From contig CAZFLM010000014.1 of the NCBI GenBank assembly GCA_964519955.1, positions 40,673 to 104,672 on the forward strand: a stretch of DNA of 64,000 nucleotides. The letters are read 5' to 3'. Below are positions 12,932 to 53,873 of the stretch, in pieces; within the stretch, counting starts at the first letter, position 1; every line of letters begins with the position of its first letter. This stretch comes from an uncultured Chthonomonadaceae bacterium (GTDB taxonomy: Bacteria; Armatimonadota; Chthonomonadetes; Chthonomonadales; CAJBBX01). The position numbers and the translations under genes were made by a program. The notes under the pieces were generated by a model that did no database searches, was not told the DNA's origin, and was given only the letters and a program-made list of their open reading frames with translations.

Positions 12932-13113
12932 GGGTGATTCGAGTTCCGTCGCCGAGTCTGGGTCTCGGTCTTGGGGATGGCCCGGCCGTGTGTTATTCTA
13001 GCGAACTTGCGAGGTCCTGTCAATGCGCGGCGCTCACGCAGGCGTCGTTCCAGCTCGATACGGGTTCAGGACAGCCCTCAGAGCAGGGCATCCCTGGCGA
13101 GCATCGCGTCACT

Positions 13114-35304: not shown

Positions 35305-36108
35305 CTAGTCGCGCAGACCCCACGAACCGTCAGCGCGCTTGTACGGAATGCCCCACAGCTCGTCGCGGCCCTGGTATGGCCCGGCATCCGCCACCAACCA
35401 GTCCAGGATGGCCTTGCCATCCAACTGGTTGCCACCAAGCTGGACGCCGGCGGAGTTGAGGAGCGGCCTCGCGTGCACGGCCTTGGCGTGTCCGTCTGCC
35501 CAGGCAGCGTTCACGGTCATGTTGTGCCGAACTTGTATCGGGGAATCGAAGAGGCCGAAGCCGGCGCTTCCGCCAGGCAGCGTCACCGTGGAGTCGGACC
35601 AGGCCGACGTCTCCGCCGGGAACTCGACGTCCGCCATGGACTTCACAGGCCGGTCGGTCTCGCCCGGGAACAGCGCGTTCGGATCGCCGTTGTCGATCAG
35701 CGCGTAGTTCGGCTGGTAGCTCACGACGCTAACGGGCGGACTGGCAACGCACGGCGCCGGGAGACCGATGACGCTCATGCCCACGATGAAGTCGAGCTTG
35801 GTCGAGTCGGAGGGGCAGAGCATGACCTGCGAGTTCTTCTGGTAGGGCTGGATCTCTTGCATCGCGGTCATGATGCAAGGGGTGGTCTGTACGGCGAGGT
35901 AGATGTTAATAGGGTAGCACTCGTCGTAGTCCTGAACGTACATGACGAGCGCCGTGCCGGTCTGCTTCAGGTTGCTCAGACAGGAGGCAGAACGCGCTTT
36001 CTCACGCGCCTGGGCGAACACAGGGAACAGGATCGCCGCAAGTATAGCGATGATGGCGATCACGACGAGCAATTCGATCAACGTAAAGCCGCGTCTGGAT
36101 AGCCTCAT
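35305..36108 (-). CDS. Prepilin-type N-terminal cleavage/methylation domain protein (DUF1559 / H-X9-DG-like pseudopilin family)
   Basis: 267 aa. Shows [39 protein letters not shown] and the C-terminal [11 protein letters not shown]. An AAGGAGAGAAGG RBS precedes it. Confidence 0.85.
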
Positions 36109-36281
36109 TGCCTTCTCTCCTTGTCGATTGGCACACGCACCGACCGGTCACGCCCCAGGGGCTGGCTGGCGTCACGCTGCCGTCGAGGTCACTCTTGCCT
36201 TGGTATTGCCTCCTTGATCAGAAGAACAGAAGCCCCCGGCCGAGCGCCTGCCCGGCCGGAAGCCCTGGTACGACCCATACC

Positions 36282-36509: not shown

Positions 36510-37340
36510 CTACGGATTGCTGCGATACCAGCTACCGTCGGCGTTTTGATGGGCGATGCCCCACAGCTCGTACCGCTCGCGGTACGGCCCCGCGTCGCTC
36601 ACCTTGTACAGCTTCAGCACCTGCCCGTCGAGGCCGGCGCACGTGTAGGCAACACCGGAGCTGTCGACGACTGCCCTGGTATGCACGGGCTTGGCATGGC
36701 CGTCGCAGAAGTTGGCGTTGGTCACACCCGAGTGCAGGCCGCTGATCGGGGACTGGAACGTCGAGCAGGAGAAGTCGGACGGCTTGCGAACCGGCATCAG
36801 CGAGGGAACGCCGTCGGAGATGAGCGCCGTCTCCACGCCGAACTCGATCGATGCCACCTTCTTCGCCGCGCGGCTGTCGTCGGTGCCGAAGATGTTGCTC
36901 GGCGAGCCGTTGTCGACGACCGCGAAGTTGAAGTTGTAGGACAGGTAGCGGACGGGCGGGCTGCTGGTGCACAGGCCCGGGAGGCCCGTAGCCGCCGAGA
37001 TGTTCGCCCAACCCGCCACGAAGTCGACGGCTCGCGGGCTGGAGGGGCACTGCATCACGTTCGCGTTCTTCTGGTACGGCGAGATCTCATGGTAGAACGT
37101 CATCGTGCAGGGCGACGAGCCGAGCGCCATGTAGAGGTTGATGGGAAACGTCTCGTCATAGTCCTGCGTGTACATCAGCGTGGCGAGGGAGGACTGCTTG
37201 AGGTTGCTCAGACAGGAGATCGCCCGCGCTTTCTCTCTGGCCTGTGCGAACACGGGGAATAGAATCGCCGCCAAAATGGCAATGATGGCGATCACGACGA
37301 GCAGTTCGATCAGCGTAAAGCCACGTCTGGATAGCTTCAT
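36510..37340 (-). CDS. Prepilin-type N-terminal cleavage/methylation domain protein (DUF1559-like), paralogue of 35305-36108
   Basis: I chose the start ATG at 37340 ([39 protein letters not shown]; AAGGAGA RBS). The C-terminus has FCDGHAKPV ... [23 protein letters not shown]. Confidence 0.85.
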
Positions 37341-37655
37341 TACCCTCTGTCTCCTTGTTGGCCGGCGGACGAACACGTCCCTATGCGCCTTCGCCCCTGG
37401 TTCCGGCTTCGTTGCCGTCGCACTAGCGGGAATACGTCGGATCCCTCCATCACGAAGAAGCGGGCAACCACCACCGCGCCACAGTCGGCGCGCAACCGAT
37501 CACCACGCACGCGAATGGTGCCCTCGGTCCATTCTAGCAAGGCGACTGACCGGTGTCAAGGAGCAACCGCGGACCCCGGTAACAAGAACGGGTACCGAAC
37601 GCCACAGGCGCCCGATACCCGCATCAGTCCTTTGTCGCTTTGGGCGACCGACCAC

Positions 37656-38522
37656 CTATGCGCCGCCCTCGGCTCCCAACACCAGGTTGTCGATGAGCCG
37701 GGTCTGGCCCACGAACGCGGCAACCGCGAGCAGCGCGCCGTCGTCGCCCACCGCGGCGAGCGGCGCAAGGGTCTCCGGGTGCACGACCTCCCAGTACTGC
37801 ACGTGCACGCCGGCCGTCGCGAGGATGCACGCGATCCCTGCCTCACGGATCGCCTTCGCGGAGCGCTCGCCCGCCTGCCACGCGTCGCGCGCGGCCCGCA
37901 GGCTGCGGCTGAGCACCAGGGCGCGGGCGCGCTCGTCCGGCGACAGGTACACGTTCCGCGAGCTGAGCGCCAGACCGTCGGCCTCGCGCACGATCGGGCA
38001 GACGACCATCTCGACCGGCACGTTGAGGTCGCGCACCATGCGCTTGAGCACCGCGCACTGCTGCGCGTCCTTCTGCCCGAAGTAGGCGCGGTCCGGCTGC
38101 ACCAGGTTGAACAGCTTCAGCACGACCGTCGTCACGCCGCGGAAGTGCCCGGGGCGATACTGGCCGCAGAGCCCCTGGGAGACGCTCTCCTCGACGACGT
38201 ACGTCGATGCGCCCTCGGGGTACATCGCCACCGGCTCCGGCGCGAACACGGCACCCACCCCGGCACCCGACAGCAGCTCGACGTCACGCTCGAACGGGCG
38301 CGGGTACTTCGCCAGGTCCTCGGTGGGCCCGAACTGGATCGGGTTCACGAAGATGCTCGCCACGGTCACGTCGCACTGCGCCACGGAGGCGCGCGCCAGC
38401 GAGAGGTGCCCCTCGTGGATCGCGCCCATCGTGGGCACCAGGCCTACCGTCTGCCCCTTGTCCAGGCCGCGGCGCCACTCGCGCAGCTCGCCCACCGTCC
38501 TCAGTATCCGGATCTCACCCAT
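37656..38522 (-). CDS. panC: Pantoate--beta-alanine ligase
   Basis: 288 aa. Shows VPTMGAIHEGHLSL and IFVNPIQF. Confidence 0.92.
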   Translation of the reverse strand: MGEIRILRTVGELREWRRGLDKGQTVGLVPTMGAIHEGHLSLARASVAQCDVTVASIFVNPIQFGPTEDLAKYPRPFERDVELLSGAGVGAVFAPEPVAMYPEGASTYVVEESVSQGLCGQYRPGHFRGVTTVVLKLFNLVQPDRAYFGQKDAQQCAVLKRMVRDLNVPVEMVVCPIVREADGLALSSRNVYLSPDERARALVLSRSLRAARDAWQAGERSAKAIREAGIACILATAGVHVQYWEVVHPETLAPLAAVGDDGALLAVAAFVGQTRLIDNLVLGAEGGA

Positions 38523-39753
38523 TGCGCCAACTCGCTATCGTACTCAGGATCTGCTTCGCCACCTCGGCCTTCGACGCCGGCCCCAACTCGACCTCAGCGC
38601 CCCGCGACGAGAACAGCACTCCGGCGTTCGCGTCGCCGCCGAAGCCGCTCTCGACACTCTCGCCCAGCCTCGCCACCCGGTTCACGAAGAGGTAGTCCAG
38701 CTTCTTGGCGATCATCTTCGCGCGGCCCGCAGCCACCACGTCGTCGGTCTCTGCGGCGAACCCACAGAACCACTGCCCGGGCCGTGCCTCGCCGCGCACC
38801 GAGCGCAGCACGTCGGCCGACGGCACCAGCCATAGCGCCGTCTCGTCGTCCGCCCGCTTCAGCTTGCCCACCGAACTCTCCGCCACCCGGTAGTCCAGCA
38901 CCGCCGCGCAGGCGATGACGCCATCCACCTCCGGCAGCAGGCTCAGCGCGGCGTCGCGCATCTCCTCGGCGGTGTTCACCTCGGTCACAGACAGCCTGCC
39001 GTGCGCGCAGGCCGGAATGCTCGGCCGGACGACGCCCTTGTCGACGCCCTGCACGCACCGCACATCGGCGCCCCGGAGGGCGGCCTGCTCCGCGATGGCC
39101 GCGCCCATCTTGCCGGTCGATCGGTTGGTCAGGTAGCGCACCGCGTCGATGGCGCTCGTCGTAGGGCCTGAGGTGACCAGCAGCTTCCACCCAGCCAGGT
39201 CGGCGGGCGTCATCACCGCCTCGATGGCGGCCACGATGTCCTCCGGCGCCGCCAGCTTTCCCTCGCCCAACTCGCCGCACGCCAGCACGCCGGACGCGGG
39301 CTCAACGATCGCCACGCCGCGGCTCTTGAGCGTCGCCACGTGCTGCTGCGTGATCGGCTGGGCCCACATCACCTTGTTCATCGCCGGCGCCACGAGCAGC
39401 TTCGCCGTCGTCGCCAGCGCCACGGTGCTGAGCAGGTCGTCCGCCAGGCCCAGCGCGAGCTTCGCGATCGCCTTGGCCGTCGCGGGCGCCACCACCAGGA
39501 TGTCCGCCCACCTCGCCAGCGTGATGTGCTCCGTGCCCGGCGCATCCGGGTCGAACATGCCGGTCCGCACCGGGTGCCCGCTCAGCGTCTCCAGGACCTC
39601 ACGCGTGACGAAGTGGGAGGCGTTCTCGGTCATGACGCAGCGCACGTCGTGGCCGCGCTTGCGCAGGAGCGAGACGATGTCGGCGGCCTTGTAGCCGGCG
39701 ATGCTGCCGGTGACGCCGAGAAGCACCTTCAGCCCGGCCTCGGGATCAGGCAT
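38515..39753 (-). CDS. coaBC: Bifunctional phosphopantothenoylcysteine decarboxylase / phosphopantothenate--cysteine ligase
   Basis: 412 aa. Shows the flavoprotein N-domain LLGVTGSIAGYKAADIV and the DFP C-domain. Confidence 0.9.
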   Translation of the reverse strand: MPDPEAGLKVLLGVTGSIAGYKAADIVSLLRKRGHDVRCVMTENASHFVTREVLETLSGHPVRTGMFDPDAPGTEHITLARWADILVVAPATAKAIAKLALGLADDLLSTVALATTAKLLVAPAMNKVMWAQPITQQHVATLKSRGVAIVEPASGVLACGELGEGKLAAPEDIVAAIEAVMTPADLAGWKLLVTSGPTTSAIDAVRYLTNRSTGKMGAAIAEQAALRGADVRCVQGVDKGVVRPSIPACAHGRLSVTEVNTAEEMRDAALSLLPEVDGVIACAAVLDYRVAESSVGKLKRADDETALWLVPSADVLRSVRGEARPGQWFCGFAAETDDVVAAGRAKMIAKKLDYLFVNRVARLGESVESGFGGDANAGVLFSSRGAEVELGPASKAEVAKQILSTIASWRNG

Positions 39754-40528
39754 TCAGTTCTCCGTATCGCACCAGGCCGCGCAGCGTCAGGTCGGGCTCG
39801 ACGCGGAAGCGCTCCGACGGGCGCAGCAGGGCCATGCAGCCGCCCGTGGCGAACATGGTCGCGTTGGCGAACTCAGGCGGCGCGTCCGCGAGCAGGCGGT
39901 CCACCATTCCCTCGATCAGCGCCTCGTACCCGAGCAGGACGCCGCTCTGGATCTGGGTGTCGGTGGTGTTGCCCACCGCGCTCGGCGGCGGCACCAGGTC
40001 GACACCGTAGAGCCGCGCAGCCCGCTCCTTCAGCGCGCGCCAGCTCACCATCACGCCCGGCGTGATCGCGCCGCCCAGGTACGCCGGTCGCGAGTCGATG
40101 AGGCAGAAGGTGGTGGCTGTGCCTGCGTCCACGATCAGGAACGGGGGCTTCGCGAGACCCATGGCGCCCGCCACGTTCGCCAGGCGGTCCGCGCCGAGCT
40201 GCTCCGGGTTCGGGAGCGCCAGGTCAAACTCGCGCATGGCGCGATGGTCCACGATCAGCGTGGGAGTGGGCCGGAACGCGCTCACGACGATGCGCTCCAG
40301 CGTGGGCACCACGGACGCGCAGATGACGCGCTCGACGGTCTCGACGACATCCGGCACGGCGATGCCGTCGCGCGCCGAAGCGAACAGGCCGGACATGCGC
40401 GCGCGGTACTCGTCGCAGGTCAGGTCGGCGCCGGTGTGGAAGCGGACGCGCGAGACGATGCGTCCGTCCTCCGCGAGACCGGCCACGGTGTTCGAGTTAC
40501 CGATGTCCAGCAGCAGCCAGCGAGCCAT
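39746..40528 (-). CDS. coaX: Type III pantothenate kinase
   Basis: 260 aa. Shows LLLDIGNSNTV and DAGTATTF. Confidence 0.88.
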   Translation of the reverse strand: MARWLLLDIGNSNTVAGLAEDGRIVSRVRFHTGADLTCDEYRARMSGLFASARDGIAVPDVVETVERVICASVVPTLERIVVSAFRPTPTLIVDHRAMREFDLALPNPEQLGADRLANVAGAMGLAKPPFLIVDAGTATTFCLIDSRPAYLGGAITPGVMVSWRALKERAARLYGVDLVPPPSAVGNTTDTQIQSGVLLGYEALIEGMVDRLLADAPPEFANATMFATGGCMALLRPSERFRVEPDLTLRGLVRYGELNA

Positions 40529-40531
40529 CCC

Positions 40532-41329
<798 letters not shown>

Positions 41330-41385
41330 GGCGCCTCGCTTCCGCGTTGGCCCGCGGCAGGTGCGGCCCGCGGGCCCAGAGAGAC

Positions 41386-41419
41386 GAGCGGGCGGAGACT
41401 CGATCGTCGCCGCCCGCTC
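41386..41419 (-). terminator. Hairpin (terminator/attenuator) between fba and the pan/coa operon
   Basis: A 10-bp stem, GAGCGGGCGG / CCGCCCGCTC. A second 9-bp hairpin lies at 41349-41376. Confidence 0.45.
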
Positions 41420-41459
41420 ATTTCGTAACCGATGTCCGGGCTGTGCCGGTGGCCGAGCC

Positions 41460-42419
41460 CTACTTCAGGGCCGCAACCGCGTGCGCTCGCGCAGCGTCGA
41501 GTTCGCCCGCGGAACCCAGCAGCTCGTTGCGGCTGGCGATGAACTTGGCGTACTCGGCCTGGAACACCTTGCCGGGCGGGCGCAGGTCGAAGTTGGCGGG
41601 CGTATCGCGGAAGGCCTCGCGATGGACGCGGCACCAGACCAGGCGGCCGTCGGTGTCGATGTTGATCTTGCAGACGCCGCGCTTGGCCGCGGGCAGGTAC
41701 TCGTTGGCGTCGACGCCCTTGGCGCCCTTCAGATCGCCGCCGGCCGCGTTGATGCGCGCGACCTCGTCCTGCGGCACCGAGGACGAACCATGCATGACGA
41801 GCGGGTACTTGGGCAGGCGCTCAGCGATCTTCTCGATCACCTCGAAGTGCAGGCCCTGGCCGCCGGTGAACTTGAACGCGCCGTGGCTGGTGCCGATGGC
41901 GCAGGCGAGGCTGTCGCAGCCGGTCTTCTTGACGAACTCCTCGGCCTCGGCGGGATCGGTCAGGCGGGCGTCCTTCTCATCGACGCTCACGTGCTCCTCG
42001 ACGCCGCCCAACTGGCCGAGCTCGGCCTCGACGCTGATGCCCTTGGGGTGCGCCGCGTCGACCACGCGCTTCGTGACCGCGATGTTCTCCTCGAACGACA
42101 GGTGCGAACCGTCGATCATCACGGACGAGTAGAAGCCGCTCTCAATGCAGTCGTAGCAGGTCTGCTCATCGCCGTGGTCCAGGTGAACCGCGAAGAGCGA
42201 ATCGGGCCAGATCTGGTCGGCCGTGCGGATGATGGCCTCGAGCATCCGCTTGTCCGTGTAGGACCGGGCGCCCTTGCTGATCTGGATGATGAACGGAGCC
42301 TTGGACTCCTCGTTGCCCCGGAAGAGCCCCATCGCCTGCTCGAGGTTATTGATGTTGTACGCTCCCAGGGCGTACTTCCCGTAGGCATGCTCGAAAAGCA
42401 CGCGGGTTGGCACAATCAT
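41460..42419 (-). CDS. fba: Class II fructose-bisphosphate aldolase
   Basis: I chose the start ATG at 42419 (MIVPTRVLFEHAYGKYALGAYNINNLEQ...). Shows HLDHG and GTSHGAFKF. The N-terminal 173 aa of the track ORF were rejected. Confidence 0.9.
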   Translation of the reverse strand: MIVPTRVLFEHAYGKYALGAYNINNLEQAMGLFRGNEESKAPFIIQISKGARSYTDKRMLEAIIRTADQIWPDSLFAVHLDHGDEQTCYDCIESGFYSSVMIDGSHLSFEENIAVTKRVVDAAHPKGISVEAELGQLGGVEEHVSVDEKDARLTDPAEAEEFVKKTGCDSLACAIGTSHGAFKFTGGQGLHFEVIEKIAERLPKYPLVMHGSSSVPQDEVARINAAGGDLKGAKGVDANEYLPAAKRGVCKINIDTDGRLVWCRVHREAFRDTPANFDLRPPGKVFQAEYAKFIASRNELLGSAGELDAARAHAVAALK

Positions 42420-42536: not shown

Positions 42537-42735
42537 CCTGTCAGCTACAACAGGTCCGGTTCCTTCGCACTCGCGCGATGGTGAACCCTTCCGCACCCGC
42601 CTGCAACTAACACCACCGGAGAGCACCCGCGGCGGGGCTGCCCCGCACACCGTAACGGAGCAGCCCTGTCCAGCGTCGAATCCCGGGACGGACGCCGTGT
42701 CCGCCCGACGCACCGCCGCCCACGGAGGTGGGACC

Positions 42736-45174
42736 ATGCAGCTACCGACATCCGTCCGCGCAATCCTGCGCATCGCCCCCCTGTTCTTGCTCGCCGTCTG
42801 CGCGGCTGCCGCGAGCGGCCAGGGCATGCTCGTTCCGCGCCCCGACGTGCGCGAATGGCCCTTCTCCATCAAGCGCGTCCAGGTGACCTCTACCATCCGC
42901 GACGCCCTGGTCGAGACCGCGGTCGAGCAGGTCTTCGGCAACGAGTCCGAGCGCGAGCAGGAAGGGACCTACCTCTTCCCTCTGCCGGAGGGCGCCACCG
43001 TCACCTCGTTCACGCTGAAGGCAGGCGACCGCACCATCGAGGGGCGCGTTCTGCCGAAGAACGAGGCGCGCGGCATCTACGAGTCGATCGTGCGCCAGCG
43101 CCGGGATCCCGCGCTGCTCGAGTACACCGGCGGCGGGGTCTTTCGCGCCTCGGTCTTCCCCATCCCGCCGCACGCCGACCGCACCCTCACCCTCCGCTAC
43201 ACGCAGGTGCTGAAGATGGAGGGCGGGATGCACAAGTTCGAGTACCCGCTGAGCACCGGGCGTTTCTCGACCAAGCCGGCGGCCTCTTCGTCGGTCTCGG
43301 TGAAGCTGCGCACGACCAGCCCGATCAAGACCGTCTACTCGCCGACGCACGATGTCTCGGTGCGGCGCGACGACGAGCGGTCCGCCTCGGCGAGCTGGGA
43401 GGCGCACGGGGAGTTCCCGGACCGCGACTTCGCGCTGTACTACTCGACGAGCGGCGACGACGTGGGCCTGAGCCTGATCACCTATGACGGCGGCGCGGGC
43501 GACCCATGCTTTATGCTCATCGCGTCGCCCCGGGTCAGCGTGCCGAAGGAGAAGACGCTCCCACGCGAGATCGTCTTCGTCCTGGACCGCACCGGCTCGA
43601 TGGCGGAAGGCAAGAAGCTCGTCCAGGCGAAGAAGGCGCTGGACTACTGCCTGGATCGCCTCAACCCGAACGACCGCTTCGGGTTGATCACGTTCAACGA
43701 GAGCACCGACCGGCTGGCCAAGGAGCTGCTGCCGGCAACGCAGCAGAATGTGGACAAGGCGCACCGGTTCATCGCGGACCTGGAGCCGGCGGGGTCGACG
43801 AACATCGGCGAGGCGCTGAAGGCGGCCATCGAGGCGCTGCGCGGCGAGAGCGGCGTCGAGAAGATGGTGATCTTCCTGACGGACGGCCTCCCCACCGTTG
43901 GCGAGACGGACGTGAACGTCATCCTGGACACGGTGAAGCGGCTGAACGGCGACCGTGAGCTGGCAAGCGCCCGGGCAGGCATCCCCTACGGCGCCGCCGG
44001 GGTCCACGCGCGCGTCTTCACGTTCGGCGTGGGCCATGACGTCAACGTGCCGTTCCTCGATCGGCTGGCGGCCGACACGCGCGCCGATGCGGACTATGTG
44101 CGCCCAGAGGAGAGCATCGAGGGCATCGTGTCGAGCTTCTACGCGAAGGTCTCGTCGCCGATCCTCGGGCGTCTGGCGCTCGCGTTCGACGGCGTCGACA
44201 CGTACGACGTGTTCCCCAAGTCGCTGCCCGACCTGTTCAAGGGGAGCCAACTCATCGTCACCGGCAGGTACCGGGGCTCGATCGGCTCCATCCGCCTGAC
44301 GGGCAACGCCATGGGGCATCCGGCAACGTACCGGATGGAGAAGGCGTTCGGCGAGGACGCGGCGCGGAGCCCGCTCGTGTCACGCATCTGGGCCGCACGC
44401 AAGATCGGCTACCTGCTGGACGAGGTGCGGCTGCACAGCAACCGCGAGGTGATCGACGAGATCGTGCGGCTGTCCAAGGAGTACGGCATCATCACGCCCT
44501 ACACGTCGTTCCTGGCGGACGAGCGGCGCGATGTCGCCCTGAAGGAGCGCTACCTCGGCGGAGACAGCTACTCGTACGACCTGGTGCCACTCCACAAGAG
44601 CATCGACGCGGTGCACGGCGCATTCGGCAACCTCCTTGGCTCGAGCGCACTGTCCGGGTCCGGAGCGATCGACCAGTCGCTGGGCCGCCGCGGCTACCAG
44701 GACGCGACCCGCGCCCCCGCGCAGGGCCAGGGCGGCATGGGCGGCTACGGCGGCGGGCTCGGCGGGTTCGGCGGGGCGGCAGCGAAGACGGCGCCCGCCG
44801 GGCAGGGCCGAGGCGGCTGGGCGCTCGACTACGGCGGAGTGACGGGCGGGCAGCAGGGGCAGGCAGCGCCCGGTACGCCGGGCTACCGCCAGATGCAGCA
44901 GGCGTCCACCGTCCAGTCCATCGGCAGCCGGGTCTTCTTCCGGCGCGGCCAGGTGTGGTTCGACAACGCCTACCGCTCCGAGCAGAAGGTGGTCAAAGTG
45001 GAAGCGCTCAGCGACGCCCACTTCCAGCTCCTGAAGGCGCTGCCCGAGCTGAGCCGCTACGCCAACGTGGGCGACGAGGTCGTCTACAGCTTCGGCCGCA
45101 CCGCGTTCCAGATCGGCCAATCCGGCCAGAAGAAGCTCAGCGACGCGGAGGTGCGGGAGCTGACCGCGAAGTAG
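42736..45174 (+). CDS. Secreted VIT-domain + von Willebrand factor A (VWA) domain protein with a Gly-rich C-terminal region
   Basis: I chose the start ATG at 42736 (signal peptide MQLPTSVRAILRIAPLFLLAVCAAAASGQG; GGAGGTGGG RBS). Shows VIT (EGTYLFPLPEGATVTSFTLK), the VWA MIDAS motif (VFVLDRTGSM) and GQGGMGGYGGGLGGFGG. Confidence 0.85.
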   Translation: MQLPTSVRAILRIAPLFLLAVCAAAASGQGMLVPRPDVREWPFSIKRVQVTSTIRDALVETAVEQVFGNESEREQEGTYLFPLPEGATVTSFTLKAGDRTIEGRVLPKNEARGIYESIVRQRRDPALLEYTGGGVFRASVFPIPPHADRTLTLRYTQVLKMEGGMHKFEYPLSTGRFSTKPAASSSVSVKLRTTSPIKTVYSPTHDVSVRRDDERSASASWEAHGEFPDRDFALYYSTSGDDVGLSLITYDGGAGDPCFMLIASPRVSVPKEKTLPREIVFVLDRTGSMAEGKKLVQAKKALDYCLDRLNPNDRFGLITFNESTDRLAKELLPATQQNVDKAHRFIADLEPAGSTNIGEALKAAIEALRGESGVEKMVIFLTDGLPTVGETDVNVILDTVKRLNGDRELASARAGIPYGAAGVHARVFTFGVGHDVNVPFLDRLAADTRADADYVRPEESIEGIVSSFYAKVSSPILGRLALAFDGVDTYDVFPKSLPDLFKGSQLIVTGRYRGSIGSIRLTGNAMGHPATYRMEKAFGEDAARSPLVSRIWAARKIGYLLDEVRLHSNREVIDEIVRLSKEYGIITPYTSFLADERRDVALKERYLGGDSYSYDLVPLHKSIDAVHGAFGNLLGSSALSGSGAIDQSLGRRGYQDATRAPAQGQGGMGGYGGGLGGFGGAAAKTAPAGQGRGGWALDYGGVTGGQQGQAAPGTPGYRQMQQASTVQSIGSRVFFRRGQVWFDNAYRSEQKVVKVEALSDAHFQLLKALPELSRYANVGDEVVYSFGRTAFQIGQSGQKKLSDAEVRELTAK

Positions 45175-45279: not shown

Positions 45280-46380
45280 CTACGGCGCCTCCGCCAGCGT
45301 CAGGTCGCCCTTCAGGCGGTCGCCTTCGCGTAGGATCACGATGGCTACCTTCTGGCCGATCTTGAGCTTCTCGGTGGCGTGGCGGAGGTCGTCGTCGGTG
45401 GCGAGCTTCTTGCCGTCGAACTCGACCACGATGTCGCCGGGCGAGATGCCGGCTTGATCGGCCGGGCTGCCGGGCACCACGCCCTGCACGAACGCGCCGT
45501 CTGTCGACTCAGCGCCGAAGCGGGCCATGATGTACTGCGTCACCGGCGTCGTGTACATGCCGGTCCACGGGCGGCGGATCTTGCCGTTCTTGCGCAGCTC
45601 GTCGGCGATGCGTGTGGCCACGTCCACCGGGATGGCGAACCCGACCCCGTTTGCGCTCTCCGCCACGAGGGTGTTGATGCCGATGAGCTTGCCCTCGCGG
45701 TCCACCAGCGCGCCGCCGGAGTTGCCGGGGTTGATCGCGCAGTCGGTCTGGATCAGGTTCTCGTAGACGCGATCGTTCACGCGGACCGGGCGGCCGAGGG
45801 CGCTGACGATGCCCTGGGTCACGGTGAAGCGCAGGCCCAGCGGGCTGCCGATGGCCACGGCGATTTGGCCTGGCACGAGGGTCTTGGCGGTGCCGATGCT
45901 GGCCACGGGCAGGTTGTCGCCCTTGATGCGCACCACGGCGATGTCCGTCGACCTGTCCGCGCCCACCACCTTGCCCTCGACCTTCTGGCCGGACTGCAGG
46001 GTGACGATGATACGGTCCGCGCCCTCGACGACATGCTGATTGGTGACGACGTCGCCCTCGGAGTTGATGATGACGCCCGATCCGGAGCCCGCTGCCACGC
46101 GTTGCGTCGGCCCGAGGAACTCCTCGCCGAAGATCGTGACGCGCCGCGTGCGGACCTTCCGCTCCGTGTCGATGTTGACGACGGCTCGCCCGCCGATGCG
46201 CGCCGCCCGCGCGTAGATCTCCTCGTTCGGCAGCGCCGGCCCCTCGGACAGCGCGCGCTCGGCCCGCTGCGCGTCGGCGTCCGGCTCCCGCCATGCGATG
46301 TGGATGTTCGGCAGCACCCAGATGCCAACCGCGAGAGCTGCCGCCATCGACACGACCCATCGACCCGTTCTTCTGCTCAT
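45280..46380 (-). CDS. htrA: HtrA/DegP-family S1C serine protease with a PDZ domain
   Basis: I chose the start ATG at 46380 (GGAGGGGAG RBS; N-terminal TM). Shows VVTNQHVV, DIAVVRI and NPGNSGGALVD (catalytic triad context), with a C-terminal PDZ domain. Confidence 0.88.
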   Translation of the reverse strand: MSRRTGRWVVSMAAALAVGIWVLPNIHIAWREPDADAQRAERALSEGPALPNEEIYARAARIGGRAVVNIDTERKVRTRRVTIFGEEFLGPTQRVAAGSGSGVIINSEGDVVTNQHVVEGADRIIVTLQSGQKVEGKVVGADRSTDIAVVRIKGDNLPVASIGTAKTLVPGQIAVAIGSPLGLRFTVTQGIVSALGRPVRVNDRVYENLIQTDCAINPGNSGGALVDREGKLIGINTLVAESANGVGFAIPVDVATRIADELRKNGKIRRPWTGMYTTPVTQYIMARFGAESTDGAFVQGVVPGSPADQAGISPGDIVVEFDGKKLATDDDLRHATEKLKIGQKVAIVILREGDRLKGDLTLAEAP

Positions 46381-46413
46381 CTCACTCCCCTCCGACGCAC
46401 GATCCGCCCTGAA

Positions 46414-46442
46414 TGGACGCACCCAATGCGACCGAGTATAAT
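46414..46442 (+). promoter_or_regulatory. Sigma-70-type promoter (TGGACG-17 nt-TATAAT) upstream of folK and the GspF-like cluster
   Basis: The hexamers are at 46414-46419 and 46437-46442, about 90 nt upstream of the folK ATG. Confidence 0.45.
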
Positions 46443-46532
46443 GGCGAGGCGGCGCATCGAAACCGCTGCCGATATGCCGCCGTAGTCCCTACGTCTCCCG
46501 TCTACTCCCTGGGCATCGATCGAGGACAGCCA

Positions 46533-47063
46533 ATGACCGCTGCGTACCTCAGCCTGGGCTCGAACCTCGGCGACCGAGTCGAGAACCTGCGAGCCGCCGT
46601 CAGGGCTCTCGATGGGCCGCAGTCCCGCCTCGTCGCGCTCTCTCCCATCTACGAGACGAAGCACGTCGGCGACACCGCGAATCCCGTTCCCGACTACCTG
46701 AATTGTGCCGCGCGCGTGGAGACCGACCTCGCGCCGCGCGACCTGCTGCATTATACTCGGGCCATCGAGGACGCTCTCGGTAGGGAGCGGCCGTCGCGCT
46801 GGGCGCCGCGCACCCTCGACATCGACCTGCTGCTCGTCGGCGACGAGGTGGTGGACGAGGCGGACCTGCAGGTGCCCCACCCCCGGCTGGCCGAGCGCGC
46901 CTTCGTGCTGATGCCGCTCGTCGACATCGCGCCCGACCTGCGCCTGCCTGACGGGCGCAGAGCTGCGGACCTGGCCGCCGACCCCACCGTGCTCGCCCAG
47001 GCCATCCGCCGCCGTTCGCTGCCCGACTGGCCGGCCACCGCGTCGCCCGGCCACACGGAGTAA
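46533..47063 (+). CDS. folK: 2-amino-4-hydroxy-6-hydroxymethyldihydropteridine diphosphokinase
   Basis: I chose the start ATG at 46533 (MTAAYLSLGSNLGDR). Shows RTLDIDLLL and VPHPRLAERAFVLMPL. Confidence 0.88.
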   Translation: MTAAYLSLGSNLGDRVENLRAAVRALDGPQSRLVALSPIYETKHVGDTANPVPDYLNCAARVETDLAPRDLLHYTRAIEDALGRERPSRWAPRTLDIDLLLVGDEVVDEADLQVPHPRLAERAFVLMPLVDIAPDLRLPDGRRAADLAADPTVLAQAIRRRSLPDWPATASPGHTE

Positions 47064-47070
47064 CCGACCG

Positions 47071-48330
47071 ATGCCCTTCTTCCACTACGAGGCCGTCGAC
47101 AGCGGCGGCAAGCAGATCTCGGGCACGATGAACGCGACGGCAGAGTCGGATGTCACGACGAATCTGACGGAGCGCGGTTTCACCCAGGTGACGATCTTCC
47201 CGCCGCGCGGCGCCGCCAACGGCACCGCGAGCAGCCCATCCAACCGGTCGATGAGCATGAAGGCCCAGCCGCAGGCCGCGCCTGTCGCAGCGCCGCGGTC
47301 GCCGGACGAGCCGCGCAAGATGACCGCGAAGCCGAAGGACAGCGCGCTCTTCTACCGCCAGCTCGCCGCCCTCGTGCGCTCAGGCATCTCCATCTTCCAA
47401 GCGCTCGACAACCTGGGCCCACGCACCACGCAGCCCGCCTACCGCTTCGCCGCGAGGGAGATGGCGGACGCCACGCGCAACGGCGGCCCGATGTCGGAGG
47501 TGATGGCACGCCACCCGTCGCTCTTCCCCGACCACGTGGTGGCCGCGGTGAAGGCCGGCGAGACCGGCGGCTTCATCGAGGTCGTTCTGGACGAGATCGG
47601 CTACGAGTACGAGCAGCACACCGCCTTCTACAAGGGCATGGCGATTCCCACAATCCTGGTGATCCAACAGCTCTTCGCGATCGCCGTTGCCCAGCCGCTG
47701 TTCCCGACGCTGTTCCCGCTCTTCCAGGTCGCCAACTACCTGATCGCCGTCGGGCGGAACACCGTCATCGTGTGCGCACTCATCTACCTGGCGCGCCTCT
47801 ACACCAGGTGGCTCTGCAGACCCGAGAACGAACAGAGGCGCCATCGAATGCTCCTCAAAGCGCCCATCTTTGGCGATCTGGCGCGCCAGAGGGCGCTTGC
47901 AGCCTTCGTCAGGATGATGCGCCGCCTCTACGGCGCGGGGATCGGCCCGATCGGTACCTGGGAGGGCGCAATGCATGTGCCGGGCAACGCCATCATCCGG
48001 GACAAGCTCGTGGACGCATACGGCCTCGTCCGCAGCGGAGTGCCGATCCACGAAGCGTTCTCGACCACCGGCCTCTTCGCGAACGAGATGGAGCAACTCC
48101 TGGCCACGGGCTTCGTGACCGGCGAGGTCGTCGAGACGTTGGACCGCGTGGCCGAGTACTACCAGGACAACGTGGACCGAGCGTTCAGGAACGCGCGGTT
48201 CACCATGTGGCGCATCGCCATCTGCACCATGATCATCCTCATCGGAGCGACGCTGATCTTGATGACCAAGACGTACTTCGAGGGGATCTTCAAGACGGTC
48301 GAGGACTGGTTCCCCGAAATGAAGGGTTAA
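47071..48330 (+). CDS. Type II secretion system F family (GspF/PilC-like) platform protein, paralogue 1
   Basis: 419 aa. PilC-type N-terminus MPFFHYEAVDSGGKQISGTMNA..., two T2SSF-like repeats (LFYRQLAALVRSGISIFQAL...; LAAFVRMMRRLYGAGIGPI...) and TM helices. Confidence 0.8.
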   Translation: MPFFHYEAVDSGGKQISGTMNATAESDVTTNLTERGFTQVTIFPPRGAANGTASSPSNRSMSMKAQPQAAPVAAPRSPDEPRKMTAKPKDSALFYRQLAALVRSGISIFQALDNLGPRTTQPAYRFAAREMADATRNGGPMSEVMARHPSLFPDHVVAAVKAGETGGFIEVVLDEIGYEYEQHTAFYKGMAIPTILVIQQLFAIAVAQPLFPTLFPLFQVANYLIAVGRNTVIVCALIYLARLYTRWLCRPENEQRRHRMLLKAPIFGDLARQRALAAFVRMMRRLYGAGIGPIGTWEGAMHVPGNAIIRDKLVDAYGLVRSGVPIHEAFSTTGLFANEMEQLLATGFVTGEVVETLDRVAEYYQDNVDRAFRNARFTMWRIAICTMIILIGATLILMTKTYFEGIFKTVEDWFPEMKG

Positions 48331-48350
48331 CGCCGGAGCGCGCCTCTCAC

Positions 48351-49553
48351 ATGCCGCAGTTCATCTACGTGGCGAAGGGACGAGACGGAGGCACGGTGTC
48401 CGGCTCCGCCGAGGCGCCGAACTCCGCGCTCGCGCTCGGCCGCCTGCGCGAGCAGGGGCTGAACGTCGAGACCATCCGCTGCGCGCGCCCGGAGAACGTA
48501 GGCTCCGCCTGGCTGGAGGCCCTCCGGCGCGAGGTGATCTGGCCGGTGCGCTACCGCGTGCGGCCGGACGAGGTCGGCGTCTTCCTCCGCATCCTGCGCC
48601 TCTGCTGGAAGCACAACCTGCCCATCCAGGAGGCGCTCGGCCACCTCGCGCGCTGCACGCGGAACCGGCACATGGCCGACGTGCTGCAGGATGCCTACCA
48701 GTATGTATCGGAGGGCGGCCGCCTCTCGGTGCTGATGGCTGCGCGCCCCTGGGTCTTCCGCCCCGAGCAGATCGAGATGGTGGCGTCGGCTGAGGAGGTG
48801 GGCGGTCTCGAGCGCGCGCTCGACGAGCTGATCGTCCGCGTCGACGTCGACCTGGAGCTGCGCCGGTTCCTCTTCCCGCTGACCGTGACGTGGTGGGTCA
48901 TGCTTGCCATCGCCTGCCTGACCCTCGGGCAGAGCGGGTTGACGCTGCGCATGCCCGCCGCCGCACGCATCTACCTCCATGGCTTCGGCCTGGCCGACGT
49001 CCTCGACACGCTCGGCTTCACGCTGCTCGTCGCCGGGCTCGTCTGCGCAGTCATCGCCGCGTTCAGGGTGGCAGCATCCTTCAACCCCTCGGTTGCCCGT
49101 GCCTGGGCGATCCTGCGCCGCACCATCCCTCTGCTCGGCGGCATTCAGCGCTCCTTCACCGCCGCACGCTTCTGCCGCACCTTCGCCTGCACGTTCGGCT
49201 CCGGCCTCACCCTGGGTCCGGCGATTCGCGCGGCGGGGCGCTCGTCCGGCGACGCCGAGCTGGAGGACGCCGCACAGCGAGTTGCGGTCGACACAGGCTA
49301 TGGCGCTCCTCTCGCACATTCCTTCGCCCGCACGAAGCGCTTCCCGCCGGAGGTCATCAGCTACCTGCAGACAGGCGAGGTGTCCGGGCGCGTCGACGAG
49401 CTGATGAACCACGTGGCCGAGCAACTCGAGCGCGACGCGATGTTCCAGATACACAGGCTCACCATCGGTGTGGCGTTTGTGGTGGTAATGTCGCTGCTCG
49501 GACGGTGCATGGTGGCGGTCGGGATGCCCGCGTCGCCGCACCGGCCCGTATAA
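48351..49553 (+). CDS. GspF/PilC-like platform protein, paralogue 2
   Basis: I chose the start ATG at 48351 (MPQFIYVAKGRDGGTVSGSAEAPNSALALGRLREQGLNVETI). Two T2SSF-like repeats are present. The upstream part of the track ORF was rejected. Confidence 0.75.
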   Translation: MPQFIYVAKGRDGGTVSGSAEAPNSALALGRLREQGLNVETIRCARPENVGSAWLEALRREVIWPVRYRVRPDEVGVFLRILRLCWKHNLPIQEALGHLARCTRNRHMADVLQDAYQYVSEGGRLSVLMAARPWVFRPEQIEMVASAEEVGGLERALDELIVRVDVDLELRRFLFPLTVTWWVMLAIACLTLGQSGLTLRMPAAARIYLHGFGLADVLDTLGFTLLVAGLVCAVIAAFRVAASFNPSVARAWAILRRTIPLLGGIQRSFTAARFCRTFACTFGSGLTLGPAIRAAGRSSGDAELEDAAQRVAVDTGYGAPLAHSFARTKRFPPEVISYLQTGEVSGRVDELMNHVAEQLERDAMFQIHRLTIGVAFVVVMSLLGRCMVAVGMPASPHRPV

Positions 49554-49773
49554 CGGCGGCCAGCCGCACTCGCACCGTCGCTCCCCTACTGCCGCGCCCC
49601 GCACCTGCCGAGCATCCCAGTAGGGCGCATCCGCATTTGTACCAGGCGCCTCACCGGCGCGCGGCAGGAACTCGCCCCCAGAGCCGCTAACTGGTGAGCG
49701 TCCACGTTGAGTGTAGGCCCCGCACGTTTGGTGAGCCGGCAGCAGACAGGGCCGCAGATAGGCAGAGGTCACC

Positions 49774-51039
49774 ATGCCCGACTTCGCATACATCGCCAAA
49801 GACCGCACCGGACGCGTCGTCCAGGGCACCATCCAGGCCGACAACTCGGCGCTCGCCATGGGCCGGGTGCGCGAGATGGGCTACGAGGTGGAACGCCTGC
49901 GCATCGTGGCCCCAAGCCGCCGGAACGTGGGCCTCGCCCGGCGCTTCGCGGAGAGCTTCGTCTATCCGGTGGTCTCCGGCGTGCCGCTGAAGGTGCTGGC
50001 CATCTTCTACCGCCAGCTCGCGACCATGATCAACGCGGGAATTCCGCTGTACCAGGCGCTGACGACGCTGCAGCACCAGACGCGCAACGCGAAGCTCGCG
50101 GCCATCACCGAGGATGCCAGCCGCCACGTGCTGGAAGGCGGCCCGCTCTCGGAGGTGATGGACCGCTACAACTGGGTGTTCAACGAGCTGCAGGTCGAGA
50201 TGATCCGCGCGGCGGAACACGGCGGCATGCTCGACCAGATGCTCAACCGCATCGCCGACTACCTGGAGCAGGAGCTGGCGCTCCGCCGGCTCATCAGCCG
50301 CCTCACCATCTACCCGAAGATCGTCCTGTTCATCGCGATGATGATTCTGGGTAAGTCGTGCTTCACCGACTTCGAGCACCCATTCGTGCCGGCGCTCGCG
50401 CGCCTCGTCCTCGGCCAGATCGGCAAGGACGCGTACACCCCGGTCGACTACTTCTGGGACACCGCCGGGTTCCTGGCGATCCTCGGGCTCTGCGTCTTCG
50501 CCGTGGTCGCGTTCTGCCGCCTCACCCTGTTCCAGAGCGACGCCGCGCGGATGGGCTACGAGCGCTTCAAGCACGCCATACCGGGCTTCGGCACGGTGTC
50601 GCGGCAGTTCGCGCTCGCCAAGTTCGGGCGGGCGTTCGGCGCGCTCTACGCCGGGGGCCTGCCGCTGAACACCGCCATCGGCATCGCGGGCCGGGCGAGC
50701 GGCAGCAAGGTCATCGGCCAGGCGACGCAGCGGGCCGTTCGGGCCGCCGACCGCGGCGCGACGCTCTCACAGGCGTTCCGCGAGACGCAGGCGTTCCCGC
50801 ACATGGTCCTCGACATGCTGGAGACCGGCGAGCGCACGGGCAATGTGGACGCGATGATGCACAAGGTCGCCGAGTACCTGGAGGGCGAGGCCGAGTCGAA
50901 GGCGCACATCTACTCCAACATCTTCGCGGTCGTCGTCGGCCTGATCGTTGCGATGCTCGTGGGCTATGCCATCATCCGGTTCTACATGGGCTTCGCGGGC
51001 GGCGTCGGCCAGGCAGTGAACGCCGGAGAGGGTGAGTAA
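49774..51039 (+). CDS. GspF/PilC-like platform protein, paralogue 3
   Basis: 421 aa. Shows [42 protein letters not shown] and [19 protein letters not shown]..., with two T2SSF-like repeats. Confidence 0.8.
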
Positions 51040-51042
51040 GCT

Positions 51043-52188
51043 GTGGCGCACGCACTGAGACTCAGGAAGCCCGAGATCACCGGGCCCATCCGACCGCCGC
51101 GCGCTGCGACGATTCCCCGCGCGATGTGGTCGGTGTTCGTGTCGCGCGGGCTGAGGCCGGCAGCTCCTGGCGTACGTCTGTCCGAGATCGCCGCGCTGCT
51201 TCGGTCGCTCGCCACGCTCGTCGGCGCCGGCATCCCGCTGTACCAGGCGCTGGACACGGCCTCGCGGCAGAACCACGCGCCGGTCGTCGCCGAGGCGCTG
51301 CGCCGGGCGGCCGACCGGGTGCTGGAAGGCGGCCGCATGTCGGAGGTGCTGGCGCGCTACCCGCACGTCTTCAGCGTGCTGCACGTCGAGATGCTGCGCT
51401 TCGCGGAAGAGGCCGGCAAGATCGACACGATCCTGGCGCTGCTGGCCGACTACGCGGAGCAGGAAGTGCGCCTCCGGCAGCTCGTCAGCCGCCTCACGAT
51501 CTACCCGAAGCTGCTGGCGTTCGTGGCCTACATGATCATCGGAAGCGGCTTCTACAACGGCTCCGCGTTCTTTGCCATCTCCCTCTGGGTCATCTCCGGC
51601 GACACGAACCGCTACCTGATGGACACGCTCGGCGTGCTGGCCGTGTTCGCGGTCCTGGTGTTCCTTGCGGTGGCCGTGTTCCGCGTTCTGCTGTTCTCGC
51701 GCCCGGCGGTCGCCCGAGCGTACGAGCAGCTCAAGATGGCCCTGCCCGGCGTGGGCGGCTGCTCGCGGCGATTCGCGTTCGCGCGGTTCGGCCGGGCGCT
51801 GGGCGCCACCTACGAGGCGGGCATCCCGATCTTCAGCGCCATCCGCATCGCCGGCGACGCCTGCGGGAACGCCACCATCCGGCAGGCGATGCAGGACATC
51901 GTGACCTACGTCGAGCGCGGAGCGACTCTCTCGCAGGCGTTCGGCGCGACGGGCGTGTTCCCCGGGATGGTGCTGCAGATGCTGGGTACCGGCGAGCAGA
52001 CGGGGAACGTGGACGCGATGATGTACAAGGTGGCCGAGTACCTGGAGGGGGAGGCAGAGACCAAGGCACACGTGAACGCCTTCATCTTCAGCGTGTCGCT
52101 CTACGCACTCCTCGCGCTGATCATCGCGTCGCAGATCATCGCCGCGTGGGGGCGCTATGCCGCCGGCGTCTCCGGGATGATGCAGTGA
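51043..52188 (+). CDS. GspF/PilC-like platform protein, paralogue 4 (lacks the PilC-type N-terminal domain)
   Basis: 381 aa. The GTG start is 3 nt after the paralogue 3 stop (the start is uncertain). [19 protein letters not shown]... and [23 protein letters not shown] are closely similar to paralogue 3. Confidence 0.75.
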
Positions 52189-53372
52189 CCGGGCGCAACC
52201 TCTACGAGGTACTGGGGCTGGGAACCAGGGCCACGACGGACGAGATCCGCTCGCGGTACCGCGAACTGGCACGCCGCTATCACCCCGACGTCGCGAAGGC
52301 GCCGGATGCGGCGGAGAAGTTCAAGGAGATCAACCACGCGAACCAGATCCTCTCGGACCCCAAGCGGCGCGCGGCCTACGACGCTGAGCTGAAGCTTGCC
52401 GAGGCCCGGCGCGCGCGCCACGCGGCTGCGGCACAGCCCCGCCCCGGGCCGCCGCAGGGCCCACCGCCGCAGGGCGGACCGCAGCGGCCGACCTCGCCGC
52501 GCCCATCGCGTCCGGCGCCGACGGTGGCGCAGCAGATCGACGCGATCATGAACGAGGCGCACGGGCGGTTCCGCCGCATGCGGTTCCGCGAGGCCGAGGC
52601 CTACTGCCGGCAGGCGCTGCGCGTGGACCGCCAGTGCGGCGCTGCGTACGAGCTGCTAGGGGACATCCATCGGGCGCGGGGCCGGGCCGACGAGGCTCTG
52701 GCGATGTACAGCTTCGTGCTGCAGCTCGACCCGAACAATCACGGCGCGCGGGCGAAGTTCGACCGTATGGCAGGGAAGCCCGACCCTCCGCGGCGAACCG
52801 CAACAGGATCGGGCTCCCACACTACCAGACCCGCACCATCCCGCGACCCGCTGCGGGCGATCTCGCCCACGCGCGCCGCAGTGACAGCCATCGGATCGGC
52901 GGTCTTGTTGTTCCTCGTGATCGTCGTTGCGCGAGACGGCGGAGGTACACCGTCATGGCTACCGCTCGAGTGGAGCGGGCTCACCATATTCGCGCTGGCC
53001 ACCTCGGGACTTTTGAGCGGCCTGCTCCTCGCACTGAACGATGTCGTCCAGGGCGCCCAAGCCGAGTTCGCAGTATCCTCGTCCCGTAACGCCGTCGGTC
53101 GTCGAGTATTGCCTCTCGGGATCGCCCTGACCGGGTTCTCCCTCGTGTGGTTCTACGCCGCCTTCGCCGTGTTCATGATGGTCGCCTTCGCGCAGGAGAC
53201 GGTTTCCCGGTCCATCCTGCGCGCATTCGCCGCGAGCTTCGGGCTGGTGGCCTTGTTCGCGCTGGTGAGAATCGACAGCGCATTCCCGCTGCTCGTATGT
53301 GGCGGCAACCTGGTCTTCCCCGCCTTCATCGTGGGCTGGATCGCGGGGGACGCGTTCCGCGATCGCTCCTAG
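52185..53372 (+). CDS. J-domain (DnaJ-like) + TPR-like + C-terminal multi-TM membrane protein
   Basis: The GTG start 52185 overlaps the paralogue 4 stop (GTGA). The J-domain is [32 protein letters not shown]...[12 protein letters not shown]-rich linker, a TPR-like helical segment and about 5 predicted TM helices follow. The upstream 353 aa of the track ORF were rejected. Confidence 0.75.
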
Positions 53373-53450: not shown

Positions 53451-53506
53451 TCAAACAACGCATGCGCGATGCCGAGACACACGGCGATCACGCCCGTTCG
53501 GCGAAG

Positions 53507-53710
53507 CTAGGCGATCGGGGCGACGTTCGCAGCCTGCGGGCCCTTCGTGCCCTGCACAACCTCGAACTGCACCTTCTGGCCTTCGCTGAGGGTCTTGAAT
53601 CCATCGCCGGTGATCGCGGAGTAGTGAACGAAGATGTCCTTCATCCCCTCACACTCGATGAACCCGTAGCCCTTCGCCTCGTTGAACCACTTGACCTTAC
53701 CCTGCGGCAT
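53507..53710 (-). CDS. cspA: Cold-shock protein (CspA family)
   Basis: I chose the start ATG at 53710 (AAGGAGG RBS). The sequence is [33 protein letters not shown]... Confidence 0.92.
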
Positions 53711-53767
53711 AGCTTGTAGAACCTCCTTGACATTCCCGACGGCCACTCCTGTGTGTGGCGTCGGGGC

Positions 53768-53797
53768 ACTATACCACGGGTTATTTAGCCGTGTCAA
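53768..53797 (-). promoter_or_regulatory. Sigma-70-type promoter of cspA (TTGACA-18 nt-TATAGT)
   Basis: The hexamers are read on the minus strand at 53797-53792 and 53773-53768. AT-rich DNA lies upstream, and the roughly 50-nt leader contains a hairpin. Confidence 0.6.
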
Positions 53798-53873
53798 GCG
53801 TCCACACGCACATTTTAGGAGTCACATTCCTAATTGTGTTGCTACCGCCGCCGACCAGGCAAATCCGCGAGCG

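Follow-up and report, generated by a model that had tools for sequence, protein, structure and literature searches.

Paired GspF/PilC-family platform genes followed by a membrane J-domain gene in Armatimonadota genomes

What can be the role of four consecutive genes for GspF/PilC-family platform proteins that stand beside a gene for a J-domain protein, with no motor ATPase gene among their neighbours? This arrangement was found in a stretch of 64,000 nucleotides (hereafter the window) from an uncultured Chthonomonadaceae bacterium of the phylum Armatimonadota (assembly GCA_964519955.1, contig CAZFLM010000014.1, positions 40,673 to 104,672). The platform genes are designated P1 to P4 below, and the gene that ends the cluster is designated J. 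A comparison with related loci indicated that the count of four is a local expansion and that the conserved unit is an A-type platform gene, then a B-type platform gene, together with J. This ordered A-B-J module is conserved and widespread in the sampled Armatimonadota. Full-text literature searches retrieved no paper in which a J-domain gene is coupled to pilC or gspF, and the module of platform and J-domain genes is new in the sense that no description of it was found there.

Gene content of the cluster and relationships of its proteins

The six genes of the cluster lie on one strand (+) at 46.4–53.4 kb of the window, and all of them, P2 included, have native codon bias. The first gene is folK (46533–47063; HPPK, PF01288 with E 1.8e-39 and TIGR01498 with E 3.4e-41), followed after a gap of 7 nucleotides (nt) by P1 (47071–48330, 419 amino acids (aa)). 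Then come P2 (48351–49553, 400 aa), P3 (49774–51039, 421 aa), P4 (51043–52188, 381 aa) and J (52185–53372, 395 aa), the GTG of J overlapping the TGA of P4 by 4 nt. A non-coding spacer of 220 nt (49554–49773) separates P2 from P3; it contains no protein remnant, no repeat and no Rfam family match, and it is absent in the closest relative, locus L084. The start codon of P4 is left as a choice between GTG, giving 381 aa, and ATG at 51124 (the public gene call), giving 354 aa, because conservation with the L084 orthologue starts only near residue 32.

A sigma-70-like promoter match (46414–46442, + strand; TGGACG-17-TATAAT, 10/12 positions) is located 5' of folK. It is a consensus match only and is regarded as the candidate start of a folK-to-J transcript. 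No terminator-like site was found from this match to position 53372, and the cluster is probably co-transcribed with folK. The leader before the cluster gave no RNA-family match and contained no riboswitch or cyclic di-GMP element. To our knowledge, no functional link between folK and pili has been described.

Each of P1–P4 matches the Pfam family T2SSF (PF00482) twice, with scores of 102–177 bits against a cut-off of 25.2 bits and E values of 3e-29 to 2e-52 (3.3e-29 for P1, 7.4e-30 for P2, 2.2e-52 for P3 and 2e-45 for P4). P3, the best-conserved member, matches the PilC of Myxococcus (3jc8) over its full length (E 1.3e-38). P1, P2 and P3 begin with PilC-type N-termini (MPFFHYEA, MPQFIYVA and MPDFAYIA, respectively), and Kyte-Doolittle hydropathy, the only method applied to them, predicts about three transmembrane (TM) segments in each. 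In P4 the N-terminal T2SSF_N domain is missing; two of its regions exceed the hydropathy threshold, and the region of its first transmembrane segment (TMS1) aligns with that of P3. The missing domain does not disqualify P4, because Guilvout et al., who found PulF to be a trimer, reported the N-domain to be dispensable (PMC10790770). The same work states that two channel residue pairs, Tyr-Pro in TMS1 and Glu/Gln-Pro in TMS3, are conserved in all GspF/PilC homologues of type II secretion systems (T2SS) and type IVa pili (PMC10790770). In an alignment where the controls, Thiobacillus PilC and planctomycete GspF, proved canonical, the TMS1 motif YPK was kept in the B-type proteins, that is, in P3, P4 and all their relatives. 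At this position P1 has A-I-P and P2 has T-V-T-W.

The J protein matches DnaJ (PF00226) over the full length of the domain (82.9 bits, E 1.7e-23) as well as TPR families. Residues H32, P33 and D34 do not vary among 44 J-protein homologues, and an upstream HPD was found in 138 of 140 J-family members taken from the retrieved matches. An AlphaFold model built from the 44 homologues (mean pLDDT 86.9) comprises a J domain (residues 1–82), a Pro-rich linker, a three-repeat TPR block (113–195), a second linker and a helical membrane domain (227–393), for which hydropathy and the model together predict 5–6 membrane helices. The modelled J domain superposes on those of DnaJ and CbpA at about 1.1–1.7 Å, and the TPR block resembles three-repeat consensus TPR proteins. 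A Foldseek search against the PDB gave only J-domain and TPR matches, and none for the membrane domain (pTM 0.84). When the TPR and membrane part was compared with 1.84 billion representative proteins, 48 matches below 1e-30 were obtained; about 110 of the best 150 matches share the length and architecture of the J protein, and the named relatives belong to Armatimonadota only. The J domain looks functional and is joined to a TPR module and to a membrane domain that resembles no structure in the PDB.

A first-pass annotation of the window, made from the sequence and its open reading frames (ORFs), had described four consecutive genes with two T2SSF-like repeats each starting 7 nt after folK, PilC-type N-termini in the first three of them and a terminal J-domain/TPR/membrane gene with a GTG start that overlaps the stop codon of the fourth. 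All of this was borne out. Its estimate by eye that P2 and P3 share about half of their N-terminal residues proved accurate too (29/60 over the first residues, 48%).

Over their entire length, P2 and P3 are 36% identical, P2 and P4 33%, and P3 and P4 48%; the identity of P1 to P2, P3 and P4 is 24%, 26% and 27%, respectively. A neighbour-joining tree that includes the relatives contains two deep clades, of which the A clade unites P1 with the relatives' first platform genes and the B clade unites P3 with their second ones. P4 is placed as a sister duplicate within the B clade, and P2 as a long branch at its base. With profiles of the two types, all loci that have two platform genes gave the same result, A for the first gene and B for the second, including about 20 loci left out of profile building; P1 scored 714 with the A profile and 162 with the B profile. 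In L084 the order is folK-P1-P3-P4-J, P1 and P3 abut, P3 is 74% identical and P2 is absent. P4 has orthologues in L084 and probably in L004. P3 orthologues are 57–74% identical in Chthonomonadales-like genomes, and P3 homologues were found both there and in other Armatimonadota genomes. Besides its own entry, P2 had no homologue of more than 27% identity in a collection of 5.8 billion proteins, in a word-based search that is insensitive below about 40% identity and even missed P3. The codon bias of P2 is normal, with a G+C content at third codon positions (GC3) of 0.90.

These relationships indicate that the A/B split is ancient, that P4 goes back to an older duplication at the level of the lineage and that P2 is a recent, rapidly diverging copy. 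P2 was probably derived by duplication of P3, an origin favoured because of the 48% identity of the N-termini. The serial duplication proposed in the first-pass annotation thus applies to the origin of P4 from P3 and probably to that of P2 from P3, and has to be given up for P1, a member of the other deep clade. Horizontal acquisition of P2 was also considered; given the limited sensitivity of the search, it is neither shown nor excluded.

A difference in size was observed elsewhere in the family: the platform proteins of the Chthonomonadaceae-like loci L091 and L092 and the proteins P0068–P0083 have 484–560 aa, which is about 100–140 residues more than P1 and P3.

Conservation and genomic surroundings

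Gene contexts were taken from the loci of homologues and from 24 further loci obtained through a metagenome scan with patterns from a six-sequence alignment. The whole scan covers 37 loci (about 525 kb), 35 of which carry a J gene. The ORFs of these loci were scored with our own profiles for T2SSF, the C-terminal part of J, folK and GspE, and Pfam spot checks agreed with the result. A platform gene (F) was found directly upstream of J in 32 of the 35 J-bearing loci, and this synteny holds down to a J-protein identity of 26%. The exact order folK-F-F-J is present in 22/35, and folK lies upstream in the same orientation in 26/35, in 24 cases with F genes in between and in two directly before J. 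Every locus with two F genes, including those outside profile building, has the order A, B, J. At most 38 nt lie between the last F stop and the YxxLG motif of the J domain in 17/29 loci, and at most 101 nt in 27/29; L093, a Fimbriimonadales locus, shares the 4-nt overlap seen in the window. Where the block is disrupted, three lineages whose neighbouring genes are otherwise unrelated still keep J beside F only: the Fimbriimonadales-like loci L088 and L093 have F-J without folK, and L090 has F-F-J without folK. In the last locus, a run of ExbB, ExbD, VWA and unknown genes (3725–5173) directly precedes F-F-J.

The number of F genes ranges from one to four among lineages, with four in the window, three in L084 and three in L004, where the contig ends upstream. 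The set of four, which the first-pass annotation had taken as the unit, did not hold up as such: P4 is present only in close relatives and P2 only in this genome, and what is conserved is A, B and J. The association of J with platform genes in relatives did hold, and the relatives' paralogues were not dispersed beside complete T2SS or type IV pilus operons. The genome of Chthonomonas calidirosea was described as disorganised and non-operonic (PMC4959169), and for this reason any conserved cluster is notable in this phylum.

Pfam annotation of the 40 ORFs outside the cluster and a GspE profile applied to every ORF revealed no GspE/PilB/PilT ATPase in the window; by the same Pfam annotation, no secretin or prepilin peptidase is encoded there. 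The earlier statement that an ATPase and a secretin are lacking is therefore correct for the whole window. Nor was a GspE-like gene found within 8–10 kb in the 37 loci. As a positive control, planctomycete homologues were used, which have a T2SSE ATPase gene immediately upstream; these loci came from a genome-contig scan with P3 only, which yielded mostly planctomycete GspF and two Chthonomonas loci. In Fimbriimonas ginsengisoli, genes for PilB, C, D, Q and M, for six PilT proteins and for 79 pseudopilins were reported (PMC4072686). A lone platform without an ATPase is to be expected in this phylum, since Chthonomonas is non-operonic (PMC4959169) and the pil genes of Fimbriimonas lie elsewhere (PMC4072686).

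The first-pass annotation had also reported the absence of pilins, which is true of the cluster and not of the window, where two pseudopilin genes (N_methyl and DUF1559; 35305–36147 and 36510–37499, both on the − strand) are located about 10 kb upstream and could encode possible substrates. The suggested service of the cluster to DUF1559 pseudopilins was rejected: of 32 loci, 11 have a pseudopilin-family gene at a distance of up to 8 kb from the cluster, which is about the chance level because a genome carries about 80 pseudopilin copies (PMC4072686). In the deep-branching group L109–L120, one or two pseudopilin genes and a 188-aa gene stand on the same strand just upstream of folK-F-F-J, about 4–5 kb before J. 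This is one shared arrangement and not independent evidence.

The GC content of the window is uniform at about 69%. Its other genes are mostly housekeeping ones; they include panC, coaBC, coaX, panB, fba, cspA, purM, purF, purL, ileS, lgt and glyA and genes for a VIT-VWA protein, HtrA, a HAD hydrolase and ABC transporters. The flat base composition and the housekeeping flanks, which are syntenic with those of relatives, led us to reject an origin of the cluster from a prophage or mobile element. The genes panC-coaBC-coaX-panB (37656–41464, − strand) lie inverted 5–9 kb upstream of folK. Clustering of all neighbouring ORFs revealed that panB-panC directly follows J in five distant lineages (L094, L102, L106, L108 and L119). 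The order is tilS-ftsH-TPR-folP-folK-(76-aa ORF)-J-panB-panC-panD in L094 and folK-J-panB-panC in L108. The ancestral order was likely folK-F-F-J-panB-panC within a cofactor/housekeeping block, and these arrangements suggest that the platform and J genes are enclosed by an ancient block of folate and pantothenate housekeeping genes. This block resembles the actinobacterial ftsH-fol...panCD-coaX region, in which uncharacterised membrane genes likewise lie between folK and panC.

Several further features of the window and its relatives were recorded. A gene for an HtrA-type Trypsin-PDZ protease (45280–46422, − strand) recurs within 4–9 kb of the cluster in six loci (the window, L084, L085, L088, L097 and L098) and divergently adjoins folK in the window and in L084. 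Just upstream of the HtrA gene and folK lies a gene for a large VIT-VWA protein (42697–45174, + strand) whose C-terminal region is rich in Gly and Gln. Contractile-injection-system genes of the PVC/eCIS or phage-tail-like kind (Pvc16_N, T4 baseplate-like, gp19 tail tube and tail sheath) occupy 1014–7028 (− strand). A frame of 847 aa (10454–12997, − strand) combines SBP_bac_1 and BPD_transp_1 and may be a fused binding-protein/permease gene or a pair of genes that share one frame. Over the cold-shock gene and its leader (53461–53860, − strand), a sub-threshold match to the cspA thermoregulator RNA family was obtained (29.8 bits against a gathering threshold of 78).

Proposed role and alternative explanations

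The Armatimonadota F family is a divergent T2SSF subfamily. We see about an even chance that the locus provides, in the form specific to Armatimonadota, the inner-membrane platform of a type IV filament machine (a type IV pilus or a T2SS-like system). Moderate confidence is likewise given to the model that a heteromeric platform is built of A and B, with J docking beside it and recruiting DnaK. The conserved core of the module is the tightly packed ordered triplet of A-type gene (P1), B-type gene (P3) and membrane J-domain/TPR gene; two duplications of the B-type gene in this genome gave the N-terminally truncated P4 and, probably, the recent, motif-degenerate P2. Platform proteins oligomerise via Cyto1/Cyto2 and TMS1/TMS3 according to the PulF work, in which TadB/TadC was proposed to be a trimer of heterodimers (PMC10790770). 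A and B would co-assemble in a manner comparable to the TadB/TadC heteromer or the PulF trimer, and only B would provide the TMS1 Tyr-Pro. The J protein would be held in physical contact with the platform through its own membrane domain of 5–6 helices, and its HPD would trigger ATP hydrolysis by DnaK at the cytoplasmic face. The TPR module would probably hold a partner, which may be the cytoplasmic domain of the platform, the motor ATPase or a pilin precursor. We infer that DnaK would thereby help assembly or regulate motor engagement, with an output in pilus formation or secretion. Motor ATPases, prepilin peptidase, secretin and most pilins would be encoded elsewhere, as is usual for non-operonic genomes.

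Several results weigh against this model. All four proteins miss the equivalog cut-offs of NCBIfam GspF (TIGR02120) and PilC (NF052606/NF052607); these are their nearest NCBIfam families, yet the best scores are far under the cut-offs (201 against 424 for GspF and 207 against 700 for PilC), and P1–P4 are for this reason filed at family level only. The TMS3 Glu/Gln-Pro pair is present in none of P1–P4 and in none of the Armatimonadota relatives examined, so that the A-type proteins and P2 are without both channel motifs. No ATPase, secretin or peptidase gene was seen in the approximately 525 kb of related loci, which leaves family membership as the tie to a working filament machine. The association of the genes is also incomplete: L001 has folK-F-F without J, J stands with folK and no F gene in two lineages (L094 and L108), and it is alone in one (L105). 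Moreover, many of the loci are phylogenetically related, and there are therefore fewer independent events than the locus counts suggest.

The chief caveat is that part of the cluster conservation may be historical rather than functional. The synteny is partly inherited, since folK and, in five lineages, panB-panC are equally conserved neighbours and have no conceivable role in pili. J could accordingly be a general quality-control co-chaperone for membrane proteins that remained in an ancient housekeeping block (tilS-ftsH-folP-folK ... panBCD), an explanation that we consider doubtful and still the most serious of the alternatives. It would account for the persistence of folK in the cluster, for L094, where J lies between folK and panBCD with neither an F gene nor an F remnant between folK and J, for the order folK-J-panB-panC in L108 and for the presence of panB and panC after J in five lineages, their counterparts in the window being the inverted pan/coa genes 5–9 kb upstream. 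It fits less well with the three lineages in which J keeps F at −4 to about +20 nt although folK and the pan genes are not nearby, and with the 32 of 35 J genes that follow an F gene. Cluster conservation of any kind is unusual in this phylum, and a generalist co-chaperone is not expected to keep translational coupling with one membrane protein family.

The remaining explanations concern the paralogues and the motor. Each paralogue could be a homo-oligomeric platform with its own motor or pilin set, the four genes being a toolbox, possibly split between extension and multiple PilT-type retraction motors or between pseudopilin families. This would agree with the very many pseudopilins and several PilT paralogues of these genomes (PMC4072686), with the identity of only 24–27% between P1 and P2–P4, and with the variation from one to four copies, which includes loci with a single B-type F and J in Fimbriimonadales-like genomes. 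We nevertheless find it rather improbable: A-then-B pairing is fixed over deep divergence, so an obligate A/B pair fits better than interchangeable parts, and an autonomous canonical A-type platform is the less likely because the A-type proteins are without both channel motifs. A still smaller probability is given to the view, compatible with the heteromer model, that the extra copies are debris, P2 and possibly P4 being non-functional or drifting duplicates. P2 is genome-unique, with no relative of more than 27% identity besides P3 at 36%; it is on a long branch, it has lost the TMS1 Tyr-Pro kept in every other B-type protein, and it came with the 220-nt spacer absent in the closest relative, while P4 is without the N-domain. 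On the other hand, P2 is an intact full-length ORF with a GC3 of 0.90, both T2SSF domains (7e-30) and predicted TM segments, P4 has an orthologue in L084 and keeps YPK, and the N-domain is dispensable in PulF. As for the motor, the platform and J might be driven or gated by Hsp70 (DnaK) and not solely by a GspE/PilB hexamer, and the lost TMS3 Glu-Pro would then reflect altered energy coupling. This view would agree with the lack of a linked motor ATPase in 37 loci and with the translational coupling of J to the platform; it is very improbable, and a conventional motor is much more likely because Fimbriimonas reportedly encodes PilB and several PilT elsewhere (PMC4072686).

The module is of interest in several respects. 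The architecture of GspF/PilC platforms and their coupling to the motor are unsettled, with dimer, trimer and ion-channel models. An obligate pair of strongly diverged full-length platform proteins, only one of them with half of the proposed channel motif, makes it possible to ask which platform features are required, and it raises the question of whether heteromeric platforms occur outside Tad. The module also offers a concrete starting point for studying the almost unstudied surface machinery of Armatimonadota, with its dozens of DUF1559 pseudopilins.

Comparison with known systems

The closest family-level counterparts are GspF, PilC and PulF of T2SS and type IVa pili, which have the same two T2SSF domains and whose MPxFxY N-domain is found in P1–P3; about three TM segments, as in these systems, are predicted for P1–P3 from hydropathy. 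In these systems the platform is encoded by one gene, whereas here 2–4 full-length paralogues stand in tandem. The planctomycete homologues are directly behind GspE, and no GspE/PilB gene adjoins the platform genes here. The residue motifs differ as well, TMS3 Glu/Gln-Pro being absent here from all proteins and TMS1 Tyr-Pro from P1 and P2.

TadB/TadC and the archaeal Epd system are similar in having two adjoining homologous platform genes that always occur together and are thought to form a heteromeric ring. In a survey of the type IV filament superfamily, paired platform genes were found only in Tad/Epd, as single-domain products of fission (PMC6668835). TadB and TadC thus have one T2SSF domain each as a result of gene fission (PMC6668835), whereas each paralogue here has both domains, from which it follows that the A/B pair arose by whole-gene duplication.

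Membrane-anchored J proteins of the DjlA type bring DnaK to membrane clients, and in the J protein described here, as in DjlA, the J domain is anchored at the inner membrane. A DjlA profile matched it with an E value of 0.004, the likeness being confined to the J domain. The domain order is different: in DjlA a TM segment comes first and the J domain stands at the C-terminus, whereas here an N-terminal J domain is followed by TPR and 5–6 TM helices.

The closest known analogue, in functional terms, is the cyanobacterial system of DnaK1, the TPR-containing DnaJ3 (Sll1384) and GrpE, which binds PilB and Hfq (McDonald et al. 2022, PMC9239167), co-localises with pilus motors and affects motility via polysaccharide output (PMC9239167, PMC12288463, PMC11407516). 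The novelty of the cluster, claimed in the first-pass annotation, therefore applies to the coupling of a J-domain gene with platform genes and not to the link between Hsp70 and pili, which was already known (PMC9239167). At the level of modules, both systems have a co-chaperone with a J domain and TPR. The cyanobacterial grpE and dnaK1 tend to adjoin pil genes, while no dnaK or grpE is near the cluster described here, where platform genes and not pilB are the partners of the J gene. In addition, the C-terminal part of the J protein is a polytopic membrane domain that resembles no PDB structure, and the cyanobacterial system acts on polysaccharide output and not on pilus assembly. If the proposed contact between J and the platform is real, it would extend the cyanobacterial finding of Hsp70 at the pilus to a second phylum, with the platform as the contact point.

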